DNA from: a virus
Lineage: Duplodnaviria > Caudoviricetes
Direction: 5' to 3' (one strand)
IMG/VR virus record: IMGVR_UViG_3300030098_006079
DNA length: 64,000 bases
This document shows, piece after piece, positions 23,816 through 58,438 of the stretch. The position numbers were made by a program, and so were the translations under genes. Under the pieces are notes generated by a model. The model saw only the letters and a list, made by a program, of their open reading frames with translations, was not told where the DNA came from and made no database searches. Each line of letters opens with the position of its first letter. Positions within the stretch are counted from its first letter, which is position 1.

Positions 23816-25243
23816 ATGAGCAATTATACTGAACAAGAACTTCGACTTTTAAAAGATAAAGTCGCTACGTTATTTAATTCCAATGATAACTGGAAGGGTA
23901 TAGGCATACAGCGTAAGGAAAAAAATGGTCAATTAACAGAAGATCTAGCTATCACATTAACAGTAGATGAAAAATTACCTGAAGAAGAAATAGATAGTAA
24001 TGATTTATTCCCACAGAGTATTACTATACCTGGATTAAGTGAACCAGTTAAAACAGATGTACAAGTAGGGCCTACTGAGGTAGTAATTGAGCCTGTTTGT
24101 TACACATTACCTACACCTGGGTTAGATTTTTTAGCAACAATGCCTGTAAGTGGTAATAGAGCATCTCATAGACCGATGATGGGTGGCATTAGTTGTAGTA
24201 TTATGCCTCCTGGAGGTTATGGTGATTCGGCTAAAAATACTGGTACACTCGGTGGTTTCTGTATTGATTTAGATGATAATACTGTAGTAGGGGTTAGTAA
24301 TAATCACGTAATGGGTGGTAATCAATTACGTGGAGATGTGCTTCCTACAAGCGCATATGAATCAGAGTTTGGATTAACTTATTGGTCTTTTTTGTCTGCT
24401 AACGACACTACTGTGTCAGAAAATGAAACAAGATATCCTGTATATCAAAGAAGTAATTGGGATAATTTTAACACTTACAAATATAATTTAGATAATTTAA
24501 AAGTAGGTACAGTGAAACGAGCTTATCCTTTTACAAGTACAAATAATAAAATTGATGTTGCGATATTTGCGATAGACACAACGGTGCCGAATTTATTTAA
24601 TAAGAATGAAACTTGGAAGCAATACTTACTTAATAGACAGGATGTAGATATGGCAGACCCTGTACAGGGTGTTTCTGCTATGTCGTTTGCTACTACTGCT
24701 GAAATAGATAGTTTAATGACGACAAACTTCGAGACACCATGTTTTAAATCAGGAAGAACATATGGGCCTTTAGGATATCCAGGTAATGTACCTTACACAT
24801 GCAATGATAGTAATACAGGTACTTTAAGTGCTTATTCAGTTACGTATTCAACAAACGTAAACTTTGGTGATAATATAGGTTCTCTTGGTTTTATTGAACA
24901 AATACGTCTGAAGGGTAATCATGATGCATCTGCTGGAGGAGATTCTGGTAGTTTTTGGTGTGCTTTGTTTAATCAAGGTAACCCTTCTTTATCTGCATGG
25001 AAAATTATCGGTCTTCATTTCGCTGGAAGTGGTGACACTGCAGTCGCTAATAGAATAGACAACGTAGCAGAGATGTTTAATTTATCCGCATATAGAGGAG
25101 AAGATTTAGATATAGGTTATAGAAATACTAATATAAAAGTTGTTGATAGCCGTCAAACAGCAATTACTGCAAGAATAGGTGGTAGAATGTATTGGCAAGC
25201 TGGATCTACGAACGAACCTGCAAATGCACAGTTTGATACATAA
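23816..25243 (+). CDS. Nal1-like trypsin-fold serine protease
   Basis: GTLG, SNNHV (His at 24305), IDVAI (Asp at 24554), KSGRTYG, GGDSGS (Ser at 24944) and IIGLHFAG. Confidence 0.8.
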   Translation: MSNYTEQELRLLKDKVATLFNSNDNWKGIGIQRKEKNGQLTEDLAITLTVDEKLPEEEIDSNDLFPQSITIPGLSEPVKTDVQVGPTEVVIEPVCYTLPTPGLDFLATMPVSGNRASHRPMMGGISCSIMPPGGYGDSAKNTGTLGGFCIDLDDNTVVGVSNNHVMGGNQLRGDVLPTSAYESEFGLTYWSFLSANDTTVSENETRYPVYQRSNWDNFNTYKYNLDNLKVGTVKRAYPFTSTNNKIDVAIFAIDTTVPNLFNKNETWKQYLLNRQDVDMADPVQGVSAMSFATTAEIDSLMTTNFETPCFKSGRTYGPLGYPGNVPYTCNDSNTGTLSAYSVTYSTNVNFGDNIGSLGFIEQIRLKGNHDASAGGDSGSFWCALFNQGNPSLSAWKIIGLHFAGSGDTAVANRIDNVAEMFNLSAYRGEDLDIGYRNTNIKVVDSRQTAITARIGGRMYWQAGSTNEPANAQFDT

Positions 25244-28905: not shown

Positions 28906-29562
28906 ATGTCATTTAAACTTTTAATCGAAAAAACTGACCCTCAAGAGTTTGAATATATTCTCGAAGAGAAGAATACTAAAGAAGCTCCACGGTTGTATAT
29001 CAAAGGACCGTATATGATGGCAGATGGTGTTAACAAAAACAATCGCGTATATGATCTTGATAATATGATTGAAGAGGTAGCGCGGTATGAAAAAGAAATG
29101 ATTAATGCAGATCGCGCCATGGGAGAGTTAAATCACCCTACTACTGCTGAAGTAGATTTAGAAAGAGCTTGTCATATTGTAACTGAAATGACTCAAGATG
29201 GTAGTACGTTTATTGGTAAAAGCAAAGTTTTACAAACACCATGTGGTGAGATTGTTCGAAAGCTTGTTACTGATGGTGTAAGAGTAGGTATGTCCTCAAG
29301 AGCATTAGGCAAGATTGATCAACAAGGAGAGGTTGGTAAAGTTAGTGAGATGAAACTTGTTGCTATTGATTGTGTTGCTGACCCATCCTATTCAGATGCA
29401 TTTGTAAATGGTATTTTAGAATCTAAACAATGGATTCTAAATAAAGACGGTTCGTTTGAAGAGCATTATGACAGGTTCGAAGAGAGTTTAAACAAACTAC
29501 CGCGCAATGATGTTAATGATTATCTAACAGAAAAAATCATTGCTTTCATTAGAAATATTTAA
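28906..29562 (+). CDS. gp21: Prohead core protease
   Basis: NKNNRVY, GELNHP, GMSSRALG and DCVADPS. Confidence 0.93.
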   Translation: MSFKLLIEKTDPQEFEYILEEKNTKEAPRLYIKGPYMMADGVNKNNRVYDLDNMIEEVARYEKEMINADRAMGELNHPTTAEVDLERACHIVTEMTQDGSTFIGKSKVLQTPCGEIVRKLVTDGVRVGMSSRALGKIDQQGEVGKVSEMKLVAIDCVADPSYSDAFVNGILESKQWILNKDGSFEEHYDRFEESLNKLPRNDVNDYLTEKIIAFIRNI

Positions 29563-29739: not shown

Positions 29740-30621
29740 ATGAGCAAGATAACTGATTTATTAAAAGAAGTAGGGAAAGACGTTCTCACAGAGGAAAGTC
29801 TTGAAACTATCGAGACAGTTTTTAACGAAGCTGTAGAGAAAAAAGCAACTGAGCGCGCTGAGCTCGCCACTGAAGCTGCATTGCAGGTTCAGGACGATGA
29901 GCATTCTAAGAAGCTAGAAGAGCTGCTTGAAGCAATCGACAAAGATCACGCGAAGAAACTCGAAAAAGTTGTTGAAGCAGTTGATACAGACCGTACACGT
30001 AAACTTAAGAATGTTATTCGTAAGTATCAGACTGCGATTGCTGAAGAAGCAAGTGGCTTAAAAGAAACCATGGTTGAATCTGTATCTGATTATCTTGACT
30101 CATATATTACAGACACCCTACCTACAGAGACCATCGAAGAAGCTACTAAAAATCGTCGTGCGTTTGACGTTCTTTCAGAAATTCGCAAAATGTTATCAGT
30201 TGATATGGTACTTGCTAATGAATCCATCCGCGAAGCTGTAAAAGACGGTAAAGCTACAATTGAAGAATCTAAGAAGAGTCTTGCTGAAATGACTGAATAT
30301 AATTCTGATCTTAAGATTCAATTAGAGGGTGCACAGAAAGAGTTATTTTTAGAAAAGAAACTCGCTGGCTTTGACGAAAAGAAAGCAAAATTTGTTCGTA
30401 AAACATTTGCTGATAAAGAATTAGCTTTCATCGAAGAAAATTTTGATTACACAGTAACAATGTTCGATAAGAAGACTGAAGAAGCTCTTCAAGTTCTTAA
30501 AGAAGAGGCTACTAAAGAGTGTAAAGCACAGGAAGCAGAAGTAGTTGTAGAAGAGAGCTCATCTACTCCTAAGTCAGCGACCGAACTTTACGCTGCTGAG
30601 TTAGCTGCAATGAGACTGTAA
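29740..30621 (+). CDS. gp22: Prohead scaffolding protein
   Basis: Acidic coiled-coil composition, TVFNEAV and SDYLDSYI; sits directly before the major capsid gene. Confidence 0.85.
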   Translation: MSKITDLLKEVGKDVLTEESLETIETVFNEAVEKKATERAELATEAALQVQDDEHSKKLEELLEAIDKDHAKKLEKVVEAVDTDRTRKLKNVIRKYQTAIAEEASGLKETMVESVSDYLDSYITDTLPTETIEEATKNRRAFDVLSEIRKMLSVDMVLANESIREAVKDGKATIEESKKSLAEMTEYNSDLKIQLEGAQKELFLEKKLAGFDEKKAKFVRKTFADKELAFIEENFDYTVTMFDKKTEEALQVLKEEATKECKAQEAEVVVEESSSTPKSATELYAAELAAMRL

Positions 30622-30705: not shown

Positions 30706-32241
30706 ATGAACGAAACTAAAACTCGTCCAAATACTGATTATATTGACAATAATCGCGCGCAGTCCTTGTTGGAGAAGTGGAGTCCAGTTCTGGACTATAC
30801 CTCCGACAAAGTTTCTGCAATTGATGACGCTTCTACGCGTCTGAACACCGCCATTCTCCTTGAGAACCAAGAAGAATGGTGTATTAAGGAAGCCAACAAT
30901 GGAAACGTTGCTGGTACTAACAGTGGAGCCTTTGGTTCTACGTTACACGCAGGCGCACAAAGTGACGCCTACCAAACTGATGATAGCTACGCTAAAGGTG
31001 ATGCTCGTTTACCGAAGATTCTTATTCCGATGATTCGCCGTACATTCCCTGAGTTGATCACTAACGAAATCGTTGGTGTTCAGCCAATGAGTGGACCGGT
31101 TGGTCTCGCATTTGCTCTTCGCTACAAGTATGCTACAACATCTCTTGATGGTACAGAAGTTGGCGGTCAGGCTGTTGGTTCTGGTGTAGCTGGTAACCCT
31201 GGAACACTTGCTACTGCAAAAGGTGGTCAAGGTACTAACGAGCTTGGTCATAACCATCTCGCTACTGGCTTCACAGGTACAGTTAATACTAGTTTATCAA
31301 CTGACTTAACCGTCGCAGGTCTTGCTGATGATGATGGGGTTGGAGATGATCACTGGTTAGAAGGTGGATTATCTGCTAATGATGCTGGTTTCGCTGCTGC
31401 GTTATCTGCATTTGAAATGGATAAAACAGCTGATAACATGCCAACTGTCGAGCTTAGCTTCGAAAAGACAGCTGTTGAAGCTGGTACTCGTAGGTTAGGT
31501 GCTCGTTGGTCGGTTGAGTTAGAGCAGGATCTTAAGAACATGAATGGTATTGATGTTGACGCTGAGTTGACCAATGCTATGTCTTATGAGATTCAAGCTG
31601 AAATCGATCGTGAGATGATCATTCGCATGGTTCAATCCGCTGTTAAAGCTGGTTCTGGTACAGGTTTCTCTACATACAGAGTTTCTGGTGCTGATGCTCG
31701 CTGGATGGCAGAAAGAAATCGCGACTTCTATCAGAAGTTGATCGTTGAAGCCAATAGAATGGCTGTTCGCAACCGCCGTGGTGCTGCTAACTTTATTGTT
31801 GCTACACCTCGTATTTGCGCTATTCTTGAGATGCTTCCTGAGTTCTCTTGGATGACTGTTGACGGTAACGTCAATACTCAACCAGTTGGTGTTGCTAAGG
31901 TTGGTAACGTTGGTGGTCGTTTTAACGTCTATCGCGATACACGTACTGAAGCTCAGTACAACCTCGGTGCAACAGCAGAGAACAATAAGGTTGAGTATGC
32001 ATTGCTTGGTTATAAAGGCCCTGAGTATTATGATACTGGTATCATTTACTGTCCTTATATCCCGGTTATGGTACAGCGATCAATTGATCCTAATTCCTTC
32101 TATCCGAAGGTTGGTATGTTGACACGTTATGGTGTTGTTGATCACCTCTTTGGTGCTTCTAACTACTATCATGTTGTTTTCGTACTTGGATTAGGAACCG
32201 CAGTCGGTTCTGGTGCTGCTGCATACACACCATTCCAGTAA
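30706..32241 (+). CDS. gp23: Major capsid protein
   Basis: LLEKWSPVL, GVQPMSGPVGL, AMSYEIQAEIDRE, YCPYIP and GMLTRYG; probable gp21 cut after CIKE. Confidence 0.97.
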   Translation: MNETKTRPNTDYIDNNRAQSLLEKWSPVLDYTSDKVSAIDDASTRLNTAILLENQEEWCIKEANNGNVAGTNSGAFGSTLHAGAQSDAYQTDDSYAKGDARLPKILIPMIRRTFPELITNEIVGVQPMSGPVGLAFALRYKYATTSLDGTEVGGQAVGSGVAGNPGTLATAKGGQGTNELGHNHLATGFTGTVNTSLSTDLTVAGLADDDGVGDDHWLEGGLSANDAGFAAALSAFEMDKTADNMPTVELSFEKTAVEAGTRRLGARWSVELEQDLKNMNGIDVDAELTNAMSYEIQAEIDREMIIRMVQSAVKAGSGTGFSTYRVSGADARWMAERNRDFYQKLIVEANRMAVRNRRGAANFIVATPRICAILEMLPEFSWMTVDGNVNTQPVGVAKVGNVGGRFNVYRDTRTEAQYNLGATAENNKVEYALLGYKGPEYYDTGIIYCPYIPVMVQRSIDPNSFYPKVGMLTRYGVVDHLFGASNYYHVVFVLGLGTAVGSGAAAYTPFQ

Positions 32242-52610: not shown

Positions 52611-52898
52611 ATGAAGAAAATATTTAACATCATTAAGGAATATAAGAAAGAGATCGGAGGTTTACTTCGACATGCTGCTACTATAGCTGGAGGTGTTTTA
52701 ATCGCTAAAGGTTCTCTTACTACTGATAGTTTCCATTTGATTTTAGGTGCTTCTACAAGTATAATCGGTACAGGTTGGTCGTTTGCTAATAAGATTTCTC
52801 AAAGAAAAGAAGTCAAAGTTGCTTTATCTACGGACCCAGTGACCGGTGATGTTACTCGTAAATTTAACGAGGAAACAAAAACTTGGGAAAGCGCTTAA
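52611..52898 (+). CDS. Putative holin (two TM segments)
   Basis: LLRHAATIAGGVLIAKG...LILGASTSIIGTGWS; late box upstream; lysozyme gene nearby. Confidence 0.55.
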   Translation: MKKIFNIIKEYKKEIGGLLRHAATIAGGVLIAKGSLTTDSFHLILGASTSIIGTGWSFANKISQRKEVKVALSTDPVTGDVTRKFNEETKTWESA

Positions 52899-52902
52899 GA
52901 TA

Positions 52903-53253
52903 ATGCATACAGGTTATCTTTATATTATAAGCAATAGATCTTGGCCTGGGTGGATAAAGGTAGGAACTACTAAGAATCTAAAAACTCGTCTGCAAACTTA
53001 TCAGACGGGTTCTCCTTTTCGAGATTATGAGATTTTATATTCTATAAAGCATCCAGATTACCTGAAAGCAGAAAAGAATATAAAAATACAAATGGCTCAT
53101 TTTGCTAAACAGATAAAAAATGAGTGGTATGAAGTAGATATAGAAATCGCTAAAGTTAGATTATCAGAACAATTAGACAATTACTTTTATGGTGAATGTG
53201 ATTATGAAGAAAAATATGATCACATACCAGTAAGAGATTTTATTTATAAATAA
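52903..53253 (+). CDS. GIY-YIG-like T5orf172-domain protein
   Basis: GYLYII, WIKVGTT, RLQTYQTGSP, AEK and EWY. Confidence 0.8.
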   Translation: MHTGYLYIISNRSWPGWIKVGTTKNLKTRLQTYQTGSPFRDYEILYSIKHPDYLKAEKNIKIQMAHFAKQIKNEWYEVDIEIAKVRLSEQLDNYFYGECDYEEKYDHIPVRDFIYK

Positions 53254-53258
53254 TTATA

Positions 53259-54080
53259 ATGACATTTGATCAATTAAATGAAGCAAATGAGATTATTTTG
53301 CAAGAAGGACCTTTTGCGAAGGCTCTTGCAGCATTAGGTATTTTAGGAGCTACCTTAGGTAGTCCGGGCGAAGTACAAGCCAAAATGCCTACTCCAATAA
53401 CTCAAGCCATTAAACAAGATCAATCTTATTACGATTATATTGCGCCGAGTGAAGGTAAAGGTAAAGCTGGTCGCCCCGGGTACGCGTACAAAGACCACAA
53501 AGGTTACTTAACCGTTGGAGTAGGCCATCTTGTTTTACGTAACGACAAAGCCTTACAACAAGTAGCGGGAAGAGATTATAATAGCGTTATAAGAGGTCGT
53601 GTACCGTTATCTGATAGACAAATGGAAGCTTTATTTAATATAGACGTACAAGCAAAAATTGCTGCTGCCAGACGAGCATTACCAGCATTTGACTCCTACC
53701 CGCAGTACTTACGTAATGCTATTGTAGATGGTTTCTTTAGAGGAGATTTATCAGGAAGTAAAAATACTTTAGGTTTAATGAATAAAGGCCAATGGAAAGC
53801 AGCCGCAAAAGAATATCTCAATCATGCTGGTTATAGAACTTCAAAAGAAGAAGGAACAGGTGTAGCTGGTAGGATGGAACGTAATGCAGCTGTGTTTGCT
53901 ACTTATGGTGGTGGTTCATCTCCCCAACAACCAGTAAAGACCGACTTCTATACAGTTAAGTCTGGAGATACATTAAGTAAGATATCTAAAATGACAGGTA
54001 AGTCAATTAAAGATATAATGCAGAAGAATAGAATTACCAACCCGAATAAGATTAGTGTTGGTCAAAAGTTATCTATTTAG
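53259..54080 (+). CDS. T4-lysozyme-like (GH24) muramidase with C-terminal LysM
   Basis: SEG...YKDHKGYLTVGVGHL (E, D-x5-T) and YTVKSGDTLSKIS...NPNKISVGQKL. Confidence 0.88.
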   Translation: MTFDQLNEANEIILQEGPFAKALAALGILGATLGSPGEVQAKMPTPITQAIKQDQSYYDYIAPSEGKGKAGRPGYAYKDHKGYLTVGVGHLVLRNDKALQQVAGRDYNSVIRGRVPLSDRQMEALFNIDVQAKIAAARRALPAFDSYPQYLRNAIVDGFFRGDLSGSKNTLGLMNKGQWKAAAKEYLNHAGYRTSKEEGTGVAGRMERNAAVFATYGGGSSPQQPVKTDFYTVKSGDTLSKISKMTGKSIKDIMQKNRITNPNKISVGQKLSI

Positions 54081-54498
54081 CGCCTCGTTCTTGCCAATTG
54101 TAAGATTTTTCATCCGTTGTTATCGGACCACCTTTTGCCCATGTATGACAAGCTCTCGCACTGTGACATTTAAAGTGATGCATCCAACAGTAACCTAATC
54201 TACCATCGTCATCAGATGTTTCTCCAGGCATACAAGCATCCATTCTAGGAGAAATATCAAACGCTACACAGTTTCCGCACAGAGATGCTCTTGCAGCCCT
54301 TTCGGTTGTCTTCCAGTACCTAGCGATTCTTTTCCAATAATTACCGGGCTCACTTACATTTAATGGTCCGTAATTATAATCTCGTATTGTTGCATCTCTA
54401 TTCTTAGTGTTTAATGCTAGGTCTTGAGTTGCCGCTGGACAATCCATTCCAGCTTTTTCTAGTATTGTTTGTATTAATGATTCGAATAGTTTTGTCAT
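54073..54498 (-). CDS. Cys-rich small protein (HiPIP-like Cys spacing), putative internal head protein
   Basis: CGNCVAF, GYC and FKCHSARACHTW; N-terminus MTKLFESLIQTILE. Confidence 0.5.
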   Translation of the reverse strand: MTKLFESLIQTILEKAGMDCPAATQDLALNTKNRDATIRDYNYGPLNVSEPGNYWKRIARYWKTTERAARASLCGNCVAFDISPRMDACMPGETSDDDGRLGYCWMHHFKCHSARACHTWAKGGPITTDEKSYNWQERGAK

Positions 54499-54499
54499 T

Positions 54500-54895
54500 T
54501 TACCAGTCCTTACACGCTTGATATCTGGCCGTACCTGGTTTAGCAGAACTACATTTATGTCTTGCTCTAAAGCTTTTCCTTCTTTTAGTATTTGCCTTAC
54601 CAGATACTTTCACACCTTTTTGACCCCAATGTATTCTCTTATAACCTTTACCGTCAGGGTTCTTAACACACTTCATCCACTTCTTACCTTTCGCAGTACT
54701 ACTAGCTTTCTTAGTAGACTTAGTACATCTTGCTGCTTCATCAATATCTTCTTTAGAAATCTTAGCAGCTTGCTTCTTCATCTGCTTTCTATACTTTGGA
54801 TCATTCTTCCATTTACTAGAAACTTTACCCTTCTTTTTAGCTTTGTTAATATTATCCCAAAGACCTTCGTATAGTTTATCGAATTCTGGTGTCAT
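54500..54895 (-). CDS. Small basic protein (RRKSFRARHxC motif), putative internal head protein
   Basis: LYE-GLWDNI, EDIDE-A and RRKSFRARHKC...ARYQACKDW. Confidence 0.55.
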   Translation of the reverse strand: MTPEFDKLYEGLWDNINKAKKKGKVSSKWKNDPKYRKQMKKQAAKISKEDIDEAARCTKSTKKASSTAKGKKWMKCVKNPDGKGYKRIHWGQKGVKVSGKANTKRRKSFRARHKCSSAKPGTARYQACKDW

Positions 54896-54899
54896 ATCG

Positions 54900-54913
54900 T
54901 ATAAATATTTATA
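54900..54913. promoter_or_regulatory. Palindromic bidirectional T4-type late promoter
   Basis: TATAAATATTTATA is a perfect 14-bp palindrome, giving TATAAATA on both strands between divergent ATGs at 54895 and 54913. Confidence 0.75.
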
Positions 54914-55263
54914 TGGAAACTACTAAAAAATTAGATAGTTACTTAAATGAATTGCATTGTCATTGTGACGGTAAGTCTCATGGTAAGAAGAAAAAGAAAA
55001 AAGTAAACGAAGATAATGCTGAACCTGATGGTGCAGGTATGGCTAAAACTGATTTATTTCATCTAGCTAACACATCTAAAGAACTACATGATATGTTAGA
55101 TGATGAATATCCATTAGATGATTGGATGGAAGCTAAATTAACAAAAGCAGCTGATTATGTTAAGTCTGTATATCAATCTGTTGCATACGATATAAAGGGT
55201 GAAGGGGAAGAAACTACAAACGAACATACTACAATTTATATTACTACTCCTGATGCCAAATAA
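54913..55263 (+). CDS. Small acidic/basic protein, putative internal head protein
   Basis: SYLNE, poly-K, GMAKTDL...WMEAKLTKAADY module. Confidence 0.55.
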   Translation: METTKKLDSYLNELHCHCDGKSHGKKKKKKVNEDNAEPDGAGMAKTDLFHLANTSKELHDMLDDEYPLDDWMEAKLTKAADYVKSVYQSVAYDIKGEGEETTNEHTTIYITTPDAK

Positions 55264-56119
55264 TTTTAAAACATATTTCGAAGAAAATAATTATTATAAT
55301 GATACTCTTCATCCTGATTTTTGGGATGAATTTGAGTTTAAAGAGGATATACTTAAGCCAATTTTAAAAATTGTTGACGACTTCGTACAGGACGATGATC
55401 ATATTTCTGCTGAGATGATAGAAGATATACAGTTAACTGGCTCATTAGCCAATTATAACTATTCAGAGTACTCTGATTTAGATGTACATATACTTTTAGA
55501 CTTTGCTGATATTAATAAAGATGAAGATTTAGTAAAGCGTGCGTTAGATGGAAAGAGATTTATTTGGAACCTTAGACATGATATAAAATTTAATGGCCAT
55601 GAAGTTGAGTTATATTTTCAAGATATTCATGAACCTCATGTGGCTTCCGGTCTATTTAGTTTATCTGGCAATAGATGGATTAAAAAGCCTAAATACGAAA
55701 AACCGGAAGTAGATCACGAGGACGTAGTAAAAAAAGCTGAGTCGTTTAAAAAAGAGCTTGATCTCTTAGCTGATGCATTAGATAATATTAGCGACGAGAA
55801 AGAATTTAGTCTTATTAATAGACGTGCAAAGAAGCTTAAAGATAAGATTATGAAGATGCGTAGAGAAGGTCTCGCTAGTAAAGGAGAGTTTTCTGTTGAG
55901 AATCTCGCATTTAAAAATTTACGTAATGATCAGACTATAGCTAGATTAAATGATCTAATTATTAAGTCATATGATCTTATGTATTCAAAAGAAGAGTTAA
56001 AAGAGAAGGTTGGTTTAGAAGAATGGGAAAAAGCTATGTTGAGTGCTTTAGGTACCAAAAACGATAAAAACGCTCAACATCAAAAAGAAAAACCAAAAAG
56101 ATATCCTATAGGTATATGA
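55253..56119 (+). CDS. Pol-beta superfamily nucleotidyltransferase
   Basis: LTGSLANYNYSEYSDLDVHI (GS...DxD), third acid in EVELY and GEFSVENLAFK; start moved to MPNNFKTYFEE. Confidence 0.8.
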   Translation: MPNNFKTYFEENNYYNDTLHPDFWDEFEFKEDILKPILKIVDDFVQDDDHISAEMIEDIQLTGSLANYNYSEYSDLDVHILLDFADINKDEDLVKRALDGKRFIWNLRHDIKFNGHEVELYFQDIHEPHVASGLFSLSGNRWIKKPKYEKPEVDHEDVVKKAESFKKELDLLADALDNISDEKEFSLINRRAKKLKDKIMKMRREGLASKGEFSVENLAFKNLRNDQTIARLNDLIIKSYDLMYSKEELKEKVGLEEWEKAMLSALGTKNDKNAQHQKEKPKRYPIGI

Positions 56120-57183
56120 AAACATATAAACAATATTTTAAAGAGAATTATATTAAGTTTATTGATCCTGATACTGGTAAAGAAGTAAAGCGTAGAGTAT
56201 CAGATACTTTTATTAATAGTATTTTAAAAAAGAAATCTGACAAGTTCGACTCTGCGTCGTATTTAAAAAAGATTAGAGATCATGGAGTAAAAACTGGAGC
56301 ATTTGATAAGGGAGAAAATATTGACTCTAGAGATGTTGTTGCATTTTTTGACTTTATAAAAGAGGCAGTACCTCGCAATCAACTACATAATTTTTTAAAA
56401 GAATTACCAAGAAAAGATTTACAAGCTCGTTTTAAAGAGGAGCTTTCTAGGTCTAAAAAATTTAGCTTTTTAGATGTTTTAGATACTACGTGTGACCCGT
56501 CTTGCAAATTCGCTGATGCATTAGCAAGTAATCCAGTTGTACTTAAAATTAGACCAGCGTCTGATAGATATAAGACTCGTGGTGCAGCTGGTCCTGGTGA
56601 AGCATTTTTAGCTTTTATGTTTTCTGGTAGAAAACCATCTGGGGCTGGAGACTTAGAATTAGACGATATGATTGTTGAGTTAAAAGCCAATGGTGGTCGA
56701 ATAGCTAAAGACTTAGATTTTCGAGGCCAAGGAAGATTATTAAGAAGTTTTTATCCAGGTATTAAGAGTACGACACAAGAAGCCTTACCTTTAATTTTAC
56801 GTCATTTTAATCAATCAGAGACGGATTTAAGTATGTTAGATTTTCTATCTGCAGTTTCTGGAGTACCATCTGGTTTAGACGATCTTGATATTAAATATTT
56901 TGCCAAGAGACCGATATATGATCTCAAAAAATACCCTACATACAGAGAGTTAATACAATTGTTAGGACCAATACAAATGAAAAATTACTTCACTAAAATC
57001 GCTGACTTTAATACAATTGCTATATTTGATAATGATATAATTATAGGTTTTAGTAGAGATATTTTACAGCAAAAAACCTCAGTTCAAATACAAAAAGAGT
57101 TTGCAAATAGTGGTGTTATAATAGGAGCAAAACCAGCAGGTGGAAGTGCATATGATGCATCAGGGTTTACAATTAATGTATGA
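56116..57183 (+). CDS. Putative PD-(D/E)xK nuclease-like protein with CTS-like N-terminus
   Basis: GPGEAFLAF...GDLELDDMIVELKA; N-terminus MKTYKQYFKE. Confidence 0.5.
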   Translation: MKTYKQYFKENYIKFIDPDTGKEVKRRVSDTFINSILKKKSDKFDSASYLKKIRDHGVKTGAFDKGENIDSRDVVAFFDFIKEAVPRNQLHNFLKELPRKDLQARFKEELSRSKKFSFLDVLDTTCDPSCKFADALASNPVVLKIRPASDRYKTRGAAGPGEAFLAFMFSGRKPSGAGDLELDDMIVELKANGGRIAKDLDFRGQGRLLRSFYPGIKSTTQEALPLILRHFNQSETDLSMLDFLSAVSGVPSGLDDLDIKYFAKRPIYDLKKYPTYRELIQLLGPIQMKNYFTKIADFNTIAIFDNDIIIGFSRDILQQKTSVQIQKEFANSGVIIGAKPAGGSAYDASGFTINV

Positions 57184-57395
57184 ACGCAATCGGATTATAT
57201 GATACAATGGTAATGGGTTATAGGGTTAAAGTACAACCTTATAAAATTACTATATTCGATGAAGACGGTTCAATTGAGGGTACTCAAATACCTAATAAGT
57301 TAGTAAGATATATTATACATGAAGGTTTTTGCGATGCTTGGCTTACAGAGAGCATGGCTATAAAGGTTAACGTTTATAGGATTAAAGATATATGA
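57180..57395 (+). CDS. Small hypothetical protein
   Basis: Coupled to both neighbours by ATGA overlaps. Confidence 0.5.
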   Translation: MNAIGLYDTMVMGYRVKVQPYKITIFDEDGSIEGTQIPNKLVRYIIHEGFCDAWLTESMAIKVNVYRIKDI

Positions 57396-58438
57396 TAACA
57401 TACAAAGAATATTTTTTATTTAATGAAGGTGGTGCAGGAGGTCATATGCAGCATCCTTTTGATGTTGATTCAGTAAACTCTGGTCAAGATCTAATAGATT
57501 TTTTTAATAGAGCGCACGATAGTTTAAGTAACAATCCTGGATCATTAAAAATAGATGGCGTTAATGCTTCTATAAAATTTATAGGTAATGAATTCGCTTT
57601 AGATAGAGGAAGTAATAAACCAATAGACGTTGAAGGTATTACTATATCAAGATTAGGTGAAAGGTTTCCTGAAGGTCATGGAATGATTAAAGTTGGTACT
57701 GAAGTGCTTTCGTTTTTTAACGACGCGTTAGGTAACATACAACAAGAATTACAATCATTAGGCATATTAGATAACCCGAATGTGCTTTTTAATTTAGAAT
57801 ATGTTGATGGTAGTACTAATGTTCTAGAATATGATGAAAAATTTATCGCTATACATGGTTTATTAGAAATGTATCAAGCTACACCTCGTAGACGTGCTTC
57901 GAAAGAAATTAATTATAATCCTGAGGTAATGCAATCGTTGATAGAAAAATTAAACCAAGCTGGAACATTTAAGGTTTTCGGATCTGTTGACGTAGGTGTC
58001 GGAGAAAGGCCTAATTATGAAGCGGTATTAGCTCAAAACGTAGAAATACCATATGAACAATCTAGTAATGAAGTTAAACCGTTAAAGCAATGGTTGCAAG
58101 AGTTAAACTTACCTAAGAGAGTCAAGTTAAAGAGGCTAGATGGTACACCGAGAGAAGCAATAAGCAAAGCAAACTACATGGATATTATCTTACAGCAAGT
58201 ACCTGTTGATACATTATATGAGAACCCAGACGAACAAAGAGCTGCTATTGATGGAGCTATTGTTTATCATGCAACAAGATTTTTAGGTAAAGCCTTACTC
58301 GAAACTCTCGATTCACCAATGGGTCGTGTCGACTCTCATGAAGGAGTTGTTATAAGAGATCCGAGAATTGATGTACGCCCGGTAAAAATTACAGGTGACT
58401 TTATCATTCAAGGTTTACAAAGTACATTCCGTAAATAG
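57392..58438 (+). CDS. RNA-ligase-like (ligase/capping nucleotidyltransferase domain) protein with CTS-like N-terminus
   Basis: Motif I KIDG (57548), III NLEYV, IIIa FIAIHG, IV EGVVIRD (58340) and V VKITG. Confidence 0.6.
   Translation: MITYKEYFLFNEGGAGGHMQHPFDVDSVNSGQDLIDFFNRAHDSLSNNPGSLKIDGVNASIKFIGNEFALDRGSNKPIDVEGITISRLGERFPEGHGMIKVGTEVLSFFNDALGNIQQELQSLGILDNPNVLFNLEYVDGSTNVLEYDEKFIAIHGLLEMYQATPRRRASKEINYNPEVMQSLIEKLNQAGTFKVFGSVDVGVGERPNYEAVLAQNVEIPYEQSSNEVKPLKQWLQELNLPKRVKLKRLDGTPREAISKANYMDIILQQVPVDTLYENPDEQRAAIDGAIVYHATRFLGKALLETLDSPMGRVDSHEGVVIRDPRIDVRPVKITGDFIIQGLQSTFRK

Follow-up and report, generated by a model that had tools for sequence, protein, structure and literature searches.

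Why should seven of eight consecutive open reading frames (ORFs) in a phage genome begin with a short peptide that ends in hydrophobic-x-E? The question is raised by genes A to H at positions 53259-58438 of IMGVR_UViG_3300030098_006079, of which a 64-kb stretch was analysed (the window, to which the counts of boxes and ORFs below refer). The window belongs to a marine T4-like phage that has diverged strongly: its major capsid protein (30706-32241) shares no more than ~35 per cent identity with that of any cultured phage and 29 per cent with T4 gp23, its prohead protease is 33 per cent identical to T4 gp21, and the cluster as a whole gave no match to cultured phages by megablast. An earlier note on this DNA had proposed that the peptides are capsid-targeting sequences (CTS) of the T4 type and that the proteins behind them are packaged in the head and injected. 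We put the probability at roughly 60 per cent that E, F and H are natural cargo fused to a T4-type CTS, a reading that is less certain for A to D. What can be established directly is how the leader motif reads and how rare it is, that a protease and late-type boxes are present, that genes are exchanged exactly where the leader ends, and which folds H (from a model) and E (from its motif) have.

All eight ORFs and all seven N-terminal peptides lie where the earlier note had placed them, and the choice of internal ATG starts for D (54913) and E (55253) is supported, since in related contigs their homologues begin at the same ATG. The cluster reads as follows:

53259..54080, plus strand: A, T4 e-type (GH24) lysozyme with a C-terminal LysM domain; acidic leader of 16 residues ending L-Q-E (53259-53306)
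54073..54498, minus strand: B, Cys-rich protein of 141 residues; leader MTKLFESLIQTILE (I-L-E)
54500..54895, minus strand: C, very basic protein of 131 residues (isoelectric point, pI, 10.5); leader MTPEFDKLYE
54913..55263, plus strand: D, acidic protein of 116 residues; leader METTKKLDSYLNE
55253..56119, plus strand: E, candidate Pol-beta-type nucleotidyltransferase (phrog_36119); leader MPNNFKTYFEE (55253-55285)
56116..57183, plus strand: F, hypervariable-slot protein with a PD-(D/E)xK-like motif; leader MKTYKQYFKE (56116-56145)
57180..57395, plus strand: G, conserved protein of 71 residues without a leader, between the variable slots F and H
57392..58438, plus strand: H, predicted ligase/capping-type nucleotidyltransferase; leader MITYKEYFLFNE (57392-57427)

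Leader peptides and the T4 capsid-targeting sequence

The seven leaders fall into two classes, a strict one in E, F and H and a looser one in A to D. MKTYKQYFKE of F, MITYKEYFLFNE of H and FKTYFEE within the E leader share the motif [KTN][FY]xx[FY][FILY]x0-3E, which occurs internally only once in 20,905 residues, giving an expectation of 0.03 N-terminal occurrences where three are observed; the DNA pattern of the F and H leaders is likewise found twice in the window and not once in 100 shuffles. The leaders of A to D are of the form F-[DE]-x-L...L-x-E, and a regular expression for this looser type matches A and B with 0.1 matches expected. Leader-type starts are rarer outside the cluster: hydrophobic-x-E within the first 16 residues is seen in 7/8 cluster ORFs and in 18/64 of the other window ORFs (Fisher p=0.002, post hoc), and the aromatic..hydrophobic-x-E form in 5/8 and 4/64, respectively (p=0.0004). 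The pattern extends to 52 distinct leaders drawn from the two variable slots, E, all N-terminal-type H homologues and cultured marine phages, in which position 4 is F or Y (51/52), position 7 holds one of Y, F, L, I and H, P3 one of L, F, I and V, and every leader ends in E (52/52). Structure models predict the leaders to be disordered, comprising residues 1-17 of H (overall predicted local distance difference test score, pLDDT, 88) and residues 1-10 of F (pLDDT 83 overall and <50 for these residues).

The internal proteins (IPs) of T4 and their capsid-targeting sequence were reportedly treated by Mullaney and Black in 1996, and reviews are available (PMC9026906, PMC3012670). Reading the T4 genome confirms that ipII and ipIII begin MKTYQEFIAE, and ipI begins MKTFKEF (MKTFKEFTSTTTPVSTITE). 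The form MKT[YF]xx[FY]...Glu is seen in F and H, and in E with an offset of one residue; the proposed likeness to the T4 CTS thus stands for these three, whereas the starts of A to D show no more than the looser hydrophobic-x-E. Within the IPIII leader, residues 4 and 7 have been mapped to targeting and residues 8 and 10 to processing, and Asp at position 10 blocks cleavage while targeting is kept (PMC9026906). These determinants are matched by the collected leaders, with an aromatic residue at position 4, a hydrophobic P3 and Glu at P1. A DNA pattern for M-K-T-[FY]-[QK]-[EQ]-[FY] finds only ipI, ipII, ipIII and gene 61.1 in the whole T4 genome, where the reversed control gives 0 matches, and the motif is therefore highly specific in the phage in which its function is proven. 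The product of 61.1 (NC_000866 18966-19130; L029:667-831) is a hypothetical protein of 54 residues whose start, MKTFKEFIKE, is the full CTS consensus.

Exchange of cargo and the candidate enzymes

Gene order and cargo were compared with related IMG/VR contigs (labelled L001, L004, L012 and so on), which keep the order of genes and the leader and replace the cargo behind it. Contig L004 is 99.7 per cent identical to the window until 56144, in the last codon of the F leader, unalignable from there until 57178, and 99.1 per cent identical thereafter; in L012 homology is lost at 57426, in the last codon of the H leader, and regained at 58433. Such a break at the last leader codon is the known pattern of the T-even IP loci, in which the bodies are diverse and only the CTS is conserved (PMC3012670). 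The F slot holds six variants that are 17-23 per cent identical and have in common G-x-G-E ... G-D and an almost invariant stretch of eight residues at the start. The H slot may instead hold a DUF6267/phrog_455 protein with the same first twelve residues. Between the two slots, G is 80-100 per cent identical in most close relatives and 52-69 per cent identical in L001, L002 and L009, whatever the cargo of F and H.

The view that the F-slot cargos are all unrelated was rejected on alignment, in which most of them prove to be remotely homologous, with G-x-G-E ... G-D in common; the exceptions, which look unrelated, are the phrog_13937 protein of L012-L014 and an extra gene of L001 (152 residues).

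The leader is an add-on to the protein body. DUF6267 orthologues of S-PM2 and S-SZBM1 are leaderless and start at the NKHLEHLED block, whereas those of Melnitz (INFSKYITE), HTVC008M (MYNDLLVE) and the window's clade carry a leader, and in the E family many members are without an N-terminal extension while others have leader-like peptides. A 193-kb JGI contig from another T4-like lineage (L016:6403-13642) has around its H homologue a run of genes that start MKKFLKTYNAILEQ, MDKFTKLANSILKE, MSWKSLDQVYLQE, MTFDKLYTSLME and MKFDDLVDVYLTE, and the phenomenon is therefore wider than the clade of the window.

Four of the proteins had been claimed as enzymes. The claim is borne out by the fold and KxDG motif of H, the nucleotidyltransferase motif of E and the lysozyme-LysM architecture of A, whereas for F there is a nuclease motif only. 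H is predicted to have a ligase/capping-type nucleotidyltransferase fold: in a VIA-align search its model aligns with T4 Rnl1 at Z 8.5 (root-mean-square deviation 5.1, 187 residues aligned), and the top 27 rows are all ligases, capping enzymes or the Pnkp ligase domain, while Foldseek against the PDB gave no match at E<=0.001 (a weak one at E 0.04). Motif I (KxDG, K53-I54-D55-G56) is invariant in 40 sequences, and the invariant E136, E317-G318 and K332 are candidates for motifs III, IV and V. A tblastn search of H against cultured phages found no match. Its relatives (P0006-P0120; L010:5989-8634) are mostly fused, at either end, to a cytidylyltransferase/NMNAT-like domain, which suggests that the two activities work together; the H of the window stands alone.

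By its motif, which has the form hG[GS]-x9-13-D-x-[DE] followed by a third carboxylate, E is a nucleotidyltransferase of the Pol-beta type, with weak database matches. It belongs to phrog_36119 (E 4e-38), a family with >3,600 representatives, and G63 S64 ... D75 x D77 are invariant and E119, the third acid, nearly invariant in 41 sequences; Pfam NTP_transf_2 falls below its cutoff (16 vs 21 bits), and the profile matches PDB 2rff, a putative nucleotidyltransferase, at E 0.004. The homologue at L009:553-1430 is split into two ORFs (169 and 92 residues) and may be a broken copy or an assembly error. For F, residues E162, D179 and E188-x-K190 are invariant in 12 homologues, and across the six slot variants E162 and D179 are kept and the Lys is lost in three. 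The F model has no significant fold match, with nothing at E<=0.001 by Foldseek against the PDB and a best VIA-align Z of 3.2, and the nuclease assignment is therefore tentative; the top VIA-align rows include the restriction enzymes HinP1I, HhaI and MspI (Z <= 3.2). A phmmer comparison with PDB sequences gave nothing useful for E, F, H or the DUF6267 protein.

The small proteins B, C, D and G have no assignable family in family, PHROG and NCBIfam searches, the last of which gave nothing beyond LysM; C has weak matches to phrog_7595 and DUF5754. B has seven Cys in its putative mature part and keeps its leader-like start as MIKKFETLVKLVLE in L006, the start of C is kept in relatives, some of which have domain insertions, and the start and L-x-E of D are conserved (MQTTQKLDGYLNE, MKTSKILDSLLEQ). 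B and C are shuffled among relatives (L003:1577-2158, L006:2480-2929, L007:2508-3089, L012:1-543), where a module that opens with M[ET]SLFD..VEE[IL]LEK and includes HDPVRPGILKR either precedes the C-terminal portion of B in some contigs and of C in others, as a fusion, or lies inside C.

Late-type boxes, head protease and virion proteomes

If the leaders work as in T4, the cluster might be expected to be expressed with the head genes and to be accompanied by a gp21-type protease. The features that bear on this are:

53241..53252, both strands TATAAATA: late-promoter-like box, 13-14 nt upstream of A
54900..54913: palindromic box of the same late-promoter-like kind, for C/B on the minus strand and D-H on the plus strand
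25268: portal gene
28906..29562, plus strand: gp21-type prohead protease, presumed processing enzyme
29740..30621, plus strand: scaffold (gp22-position) protein, presumed docking partner of the leaders
60116: fibre gene

Both of the TATAAATA boxes that had been claimed near 53245 and 54900 are present. The octamer itself is not enriched across the window (18 seen vs 19 expected), and it is the position of ATAAATA that is informative: it lies 10-22 nt upstream of 12 start codons (4316, 25268, 27067, 28906, 35544, 39698 on the minus strand, 48399, 52611, 53259, 54895 on the minus strand, 54913 and 60116) where 0.33 are expected (Poisson p ~2e-15). The genes so marked include those for the portal, the protease and the fibre as well as A, C and D, and the boxes of the cluster stand at about -12/-13, like those of the portal and protease genes. 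Genes D to H adjoin or overlap one another on one strand, and C is followed by B, so that three late-type boxes serve the block. Each of the three units begins with the same kind of box as the portal and protease genes, and the cluster would thus be expressed late. In the recurrent ATAAATAATTAT-ATG layout the box is so near the start codon that the 5' leaders of the transcripts would be only a few nucleotides long.

The protease gene at 28906 is of the gp21 type, as proposed (phrog_207 E 7e-56), and its GELNHP and SSR(G/A)LG blocks and an N-terminal LLIE align with T4 gp21. Between it and the major capsid gene lies the Glu-rich protein at 29740-30621, with repeated L-x-E, which has no family match and whose role as a scaffold we infer from its position. 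A head-closure protein and a gp5-like hub are also encoded in the window. Prediction of a complex between the protease and residues 1-40 of F gave a score of 0.01, which speaks neither for nor against binding, and no gp21 homologue was found on the contig fragments behind L005 and L010, which are uninformative for a correlation between leaders and a T4-type head. A further virion-module protein of 475 residues (23816-25243), with an exact TATAAATA 48 nt upstream, matches the protease family phrog_20754 (E 3e-14) and would be a second protease besides gp21.

Published virion proteomes bear indirectly on packaging. That of cyanophage S-CREM2 lists ORF154, ORF155 and ORF156 (PMC10665884, Table 3), of which ORF154 is a cytidylyltransferase starting MKNFSSFLTE and ORF156 (gp156) is an E homologue by tblastn (36 per cent identity by blastp, E 1e-36); the part of the particle that holds such homologues is left unspecified in that proteome (PMC10665884). 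The cytidylyltransferase of S-SZBM1 starts MRFRQFIIE and was detected in the virion proteome, whereas the DUF6267 protein beside it, which has no leader, does not appear among the listed virion proteins that were examined, and the cytidyltransferase of S-CRM01 starts MKLFNQFFKE. NMNAT-like enzymes have been reported repeatedly in cyanophage virions, with no link drawn to a CTS (PMC9602691, PMC9146016), and within the one library of papers searched, none but a general T4 review ties the CTS to marine T4-like phages.

Taken together, these observations may be read as follows, the docking, cleavage, packaging, injection and targets of the enzymes all being inferred. The proteins would be produced late in infection, with one late-promoter unit for A, a second for C followed by B, and a third for D through H. 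A leader of 9-16 residues would dock its protein on the scaffolding core while the prohead forms, with the aromatic residues at 4 and 7, the hydrophobic P3 and the Glu at P1 as its key residues. The gp21-type protease would then cut after the Glu, and the mature protein would stay in the head, to be ejected with the DNA into the next cell, where the nucleotidyltransferase, the fast-evolving PD-(D/E)xK-like protein and the ligase-type enzyme could act before phage gene expression, most likely against host defences. For E, F and H this reading is well supported by the comparative evidence and, indirectly, by the published proteomes; the case for B, C and D, though plausible, is a weak one, and that for A is contested.

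Alternative readings and known systems

Several observations weigh against packaging. Hydrophobic-x-E near the N-terminus is found in 28 per cent of the other ORFs, which weakens the case for A to D, and among them are the protease itself and the holin-like protein at 52611 (MKKIFNIIKE). E and H are large and acidic, unlike the small internal proteins of T4: mature E would have 277 residues and a pI of 5.3, and mature H 336 residues and a pI of 5.1, and only C, A and F are basic members of the cluster. Small size and basic charge are, however, habitual in T4 internal proteins without being required, given that packaging extends to Alt and to foreign enzymes. In H, the hydrophobic-x-E before GGAGGHM is conserved in >70 homologues in which the domain is internal, following an N-terminal cytidylyltransferase; the Glu is therefore part of the domain motif and no proof of cleavage, and it is the MKTFKxY part alone that is peculiar to the N-terminal position. 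The presence of L-x-E before GGAGGHM in three different H leaders was accordingly dropped as evidence of a cleavage site, the same tripeptide being there when the domain is internal. The authors of the S-CREM2 study also warn that abundant non-structural proteins may carry over through CsCl purification (PMC10665884). Finally, the leader codons are mostly A/T-rich (AAA, ACA, TTT, TAT) and lie at a recombination boundary, and their conservation at the DNA level could therefore have other causes.

That last point leads to a reading, unlikely in our estimate, in which the shared N-terminal codons are a linker for recombination and translation start and the proteins act late in the cytoplasm of the producing cell. 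A conserved A/T-rich 5' gene end would make initiation efficient and serve as a homology arm when cassettes are exchanged; the exchange breakpoints fall exactly at the leader end, the leader codons are alike at the DNA level between slots and phages, and upstream genes overlap the start codons, so that the 5' arm includes the leader. It is the peptide, however, that is kept through synonymous and conservative changes (TTT/TTC, TAT/TAC, Y/F, K/R), and E uses codon strings different from those of F and H. The same peptide rule also holds in distant phages with different DNA (MKLFNQFFKE in S-CRM01, MQGFKTFLSE in Melnitz), the leaders match the experimentally mapped T4 determinants, the 3' arm exists without a conserved peptide, and leader-bearing homologues are found in virions. 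Much more improbable still is that the leaders are propeptides for activation or sorting by the S1-like protease at 23816-25243, serve in tail or baseplate assembly, or are a degradation signal. The position of that second protease-like gene in the virion module behind an exact TATAAATA, and the silence of the published proteomes on the part of the particle concerned, would fit; the leader nevertheless matches the head-specific T4 CTS and the Glu-specific rule of gp21, nothing ties it to an S1-type specificity, and the N-terminus of the gp21-type protease keeps an LLIE site that fits the T4 gp21 cleavage logo.

For A alone, there is reason to think that an ordinary lysis enzyme, a signal-anchor-release (SAR) or secreted endolysin working with the holin-like protein, has a chance only a little below even. 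A matches endolysin PHROGs and LysM (53 bits), falls just short for Phage_lysozyme (21.5 bits vs a cutoff of 22.3, which close homologues pass), and is 30 per cent identical to T4 e (E 2e-11). In T4, e is a late gene for lysis, and the window showed no endolysin besides A. Residues 18-34 of A, behind the leader, form a Gly/Ala-rich segment of weak hydrophobicity (Kyte-Doolittle mean 1.42) that ends V-Q-A, and two genes upstream lies a membrane protein candidate:

52611..52898, plus strand: holin-like protein of 95 residues, with two weakly hydrophobic segments and its own late-type box

Given the segment and the upstream membrane protein, the reading of A as a SAR or secreted endolysin has to be taken seriously, the holin likeness being by hydropathy only, with no family match. 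Leader and segment are kept together in close homologues, and a group 60-67 per cent identical to the catalytic domain of A has neither. The 16 acidic residues (net ~-4) before the segment would nonetheless be unusual for a SAR domain or signal peptide, and a [LFV]-x-E-G junction is conserved in homologues of 40-45 per cent identity with otherwise different N-termini; together, these keep a packaged muramidase in contention. In a further lysozyme group MISLKSLLTE sits directly on the catalytic domain. The gp5-like spike, moreover, matches only the hub part (positions 17-134 of 868) of the hub-plus-lysozyme profile, and a muramidase for entry would therefore have to come from elsewhere. The gene between the holin-like gene and A (52846-53253) is of a GIY-YIG/T5orf172-like homing-endonuclease type; it matches phrog_15085 and phrog_5032, and endonuclease PHROGs at lower score.

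A broader proposal may be made, which we hold with somewhat less than even confidence: that the T4 CTS code is conserved across the whole T4 superfamily and that abundant marine myophages use it as a plug-in address label whose cargo consists of injected first-strike tools. Any enzyme recombined at the leader boundary would then become an injected tool, as might the ligase-type, nucleotidyltransferase, fast-evolving nuclease-like, NMNAT-like and muramidase proteins, and each slot would be renewed in an arms race with host defences, its tools serving, for instance, to repair cleaved RNA or DNA, to restore NAD+ or to destroy the DNA of host or competitor at entry. A payload that is enzymatic and quickly changing points to counter-defence functions not yet described. 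Were the leaders to function in the T4 manner, the proteins injected by uncultured marine T4-like phages, which act before phage gene expression and are hard to find otherwise, could be predicted from a simple sequence rule, and there would be a mechanism for the unexplained cytidylyltransferase/NMNAT-like and other enzymes in cyanophage virion proteomes. It also suggests that the targeting peptide is among the most conserved elements of T4-type head assembly, which would be useful for engineering protein delivery in phages of hosts other than coli.

The earlier note knew of no description of this combination, which is too strong, since packaged, gp21-processed Alt and NMNAT-like virion enzymes are known (PMC9026906, PMC9602691, PMC9146016). 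T4 Alt carries propeptides, is processed by gp21, is present at ~40 copies in the head and, once injected, acts ahead of phage transcription (PMC9026906, PMC5694885). The cargo of the window is proposed to share packaging, processing and injection with this enzyme, but Alt is of another enzyme class and a single gene, not a multi-slot cassette. In phiKZ-like phages and SPN3US, a gp21-related protease removes propeptides of the ejection proteins after Glu, and paralogues share identical N-termini (PMC5694885). These too are head-internal proteins, some of them enzymes (virion RNA polymerase), whereas their propeptides are mostly >100 residues, with another cleavage-site logo and in another phage lineage. 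Also comparable are the NMNAT/cytidylyltransferase proteins and other enzymes in the virions of S-CREM2, S-SZBM1, S-SCSM1 and S-CBWM1: the cytidylyltransferase is the domain that is fused to H in relatives, S-CREM2 ORF156 is the E homologue, and starts are leader-like. The papers in question, however, report detection, make no mention of a CTS or processing and allow for contamination, and the H of the window has no cytidylyltransferase domain.

The closest parallel is T4 IPI, IPII and IPIII. Both systems have an N-terminal MKT[YF]..F..E leader of 10-19 residues with determinants at 4, 7, 8 and 10, a gp21 protease in the genome, a conserved leader before a body that is hypervariable among related phages, and a locus outside the structural module beside an e-type lysozyme (ipII and ipIII adjoin e in T4). 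They differ in that the cargo of the window is enzyme-sized (277-345 mature residues), partly acidic and without sequence similarity, once mature, to IPI, IPII or IPIII, and in that the capsid protein is ~30 per cent identical and packaging, demonstrated in T4, is here a prediction. The mechanism itself is thus the known CTS/gp21 system of T4; what is new is that the CTS peptide is kept in a lineage only ~30 per cent identical to T4, and that it labels exchangeable, enzyme-sized cargo in slots.

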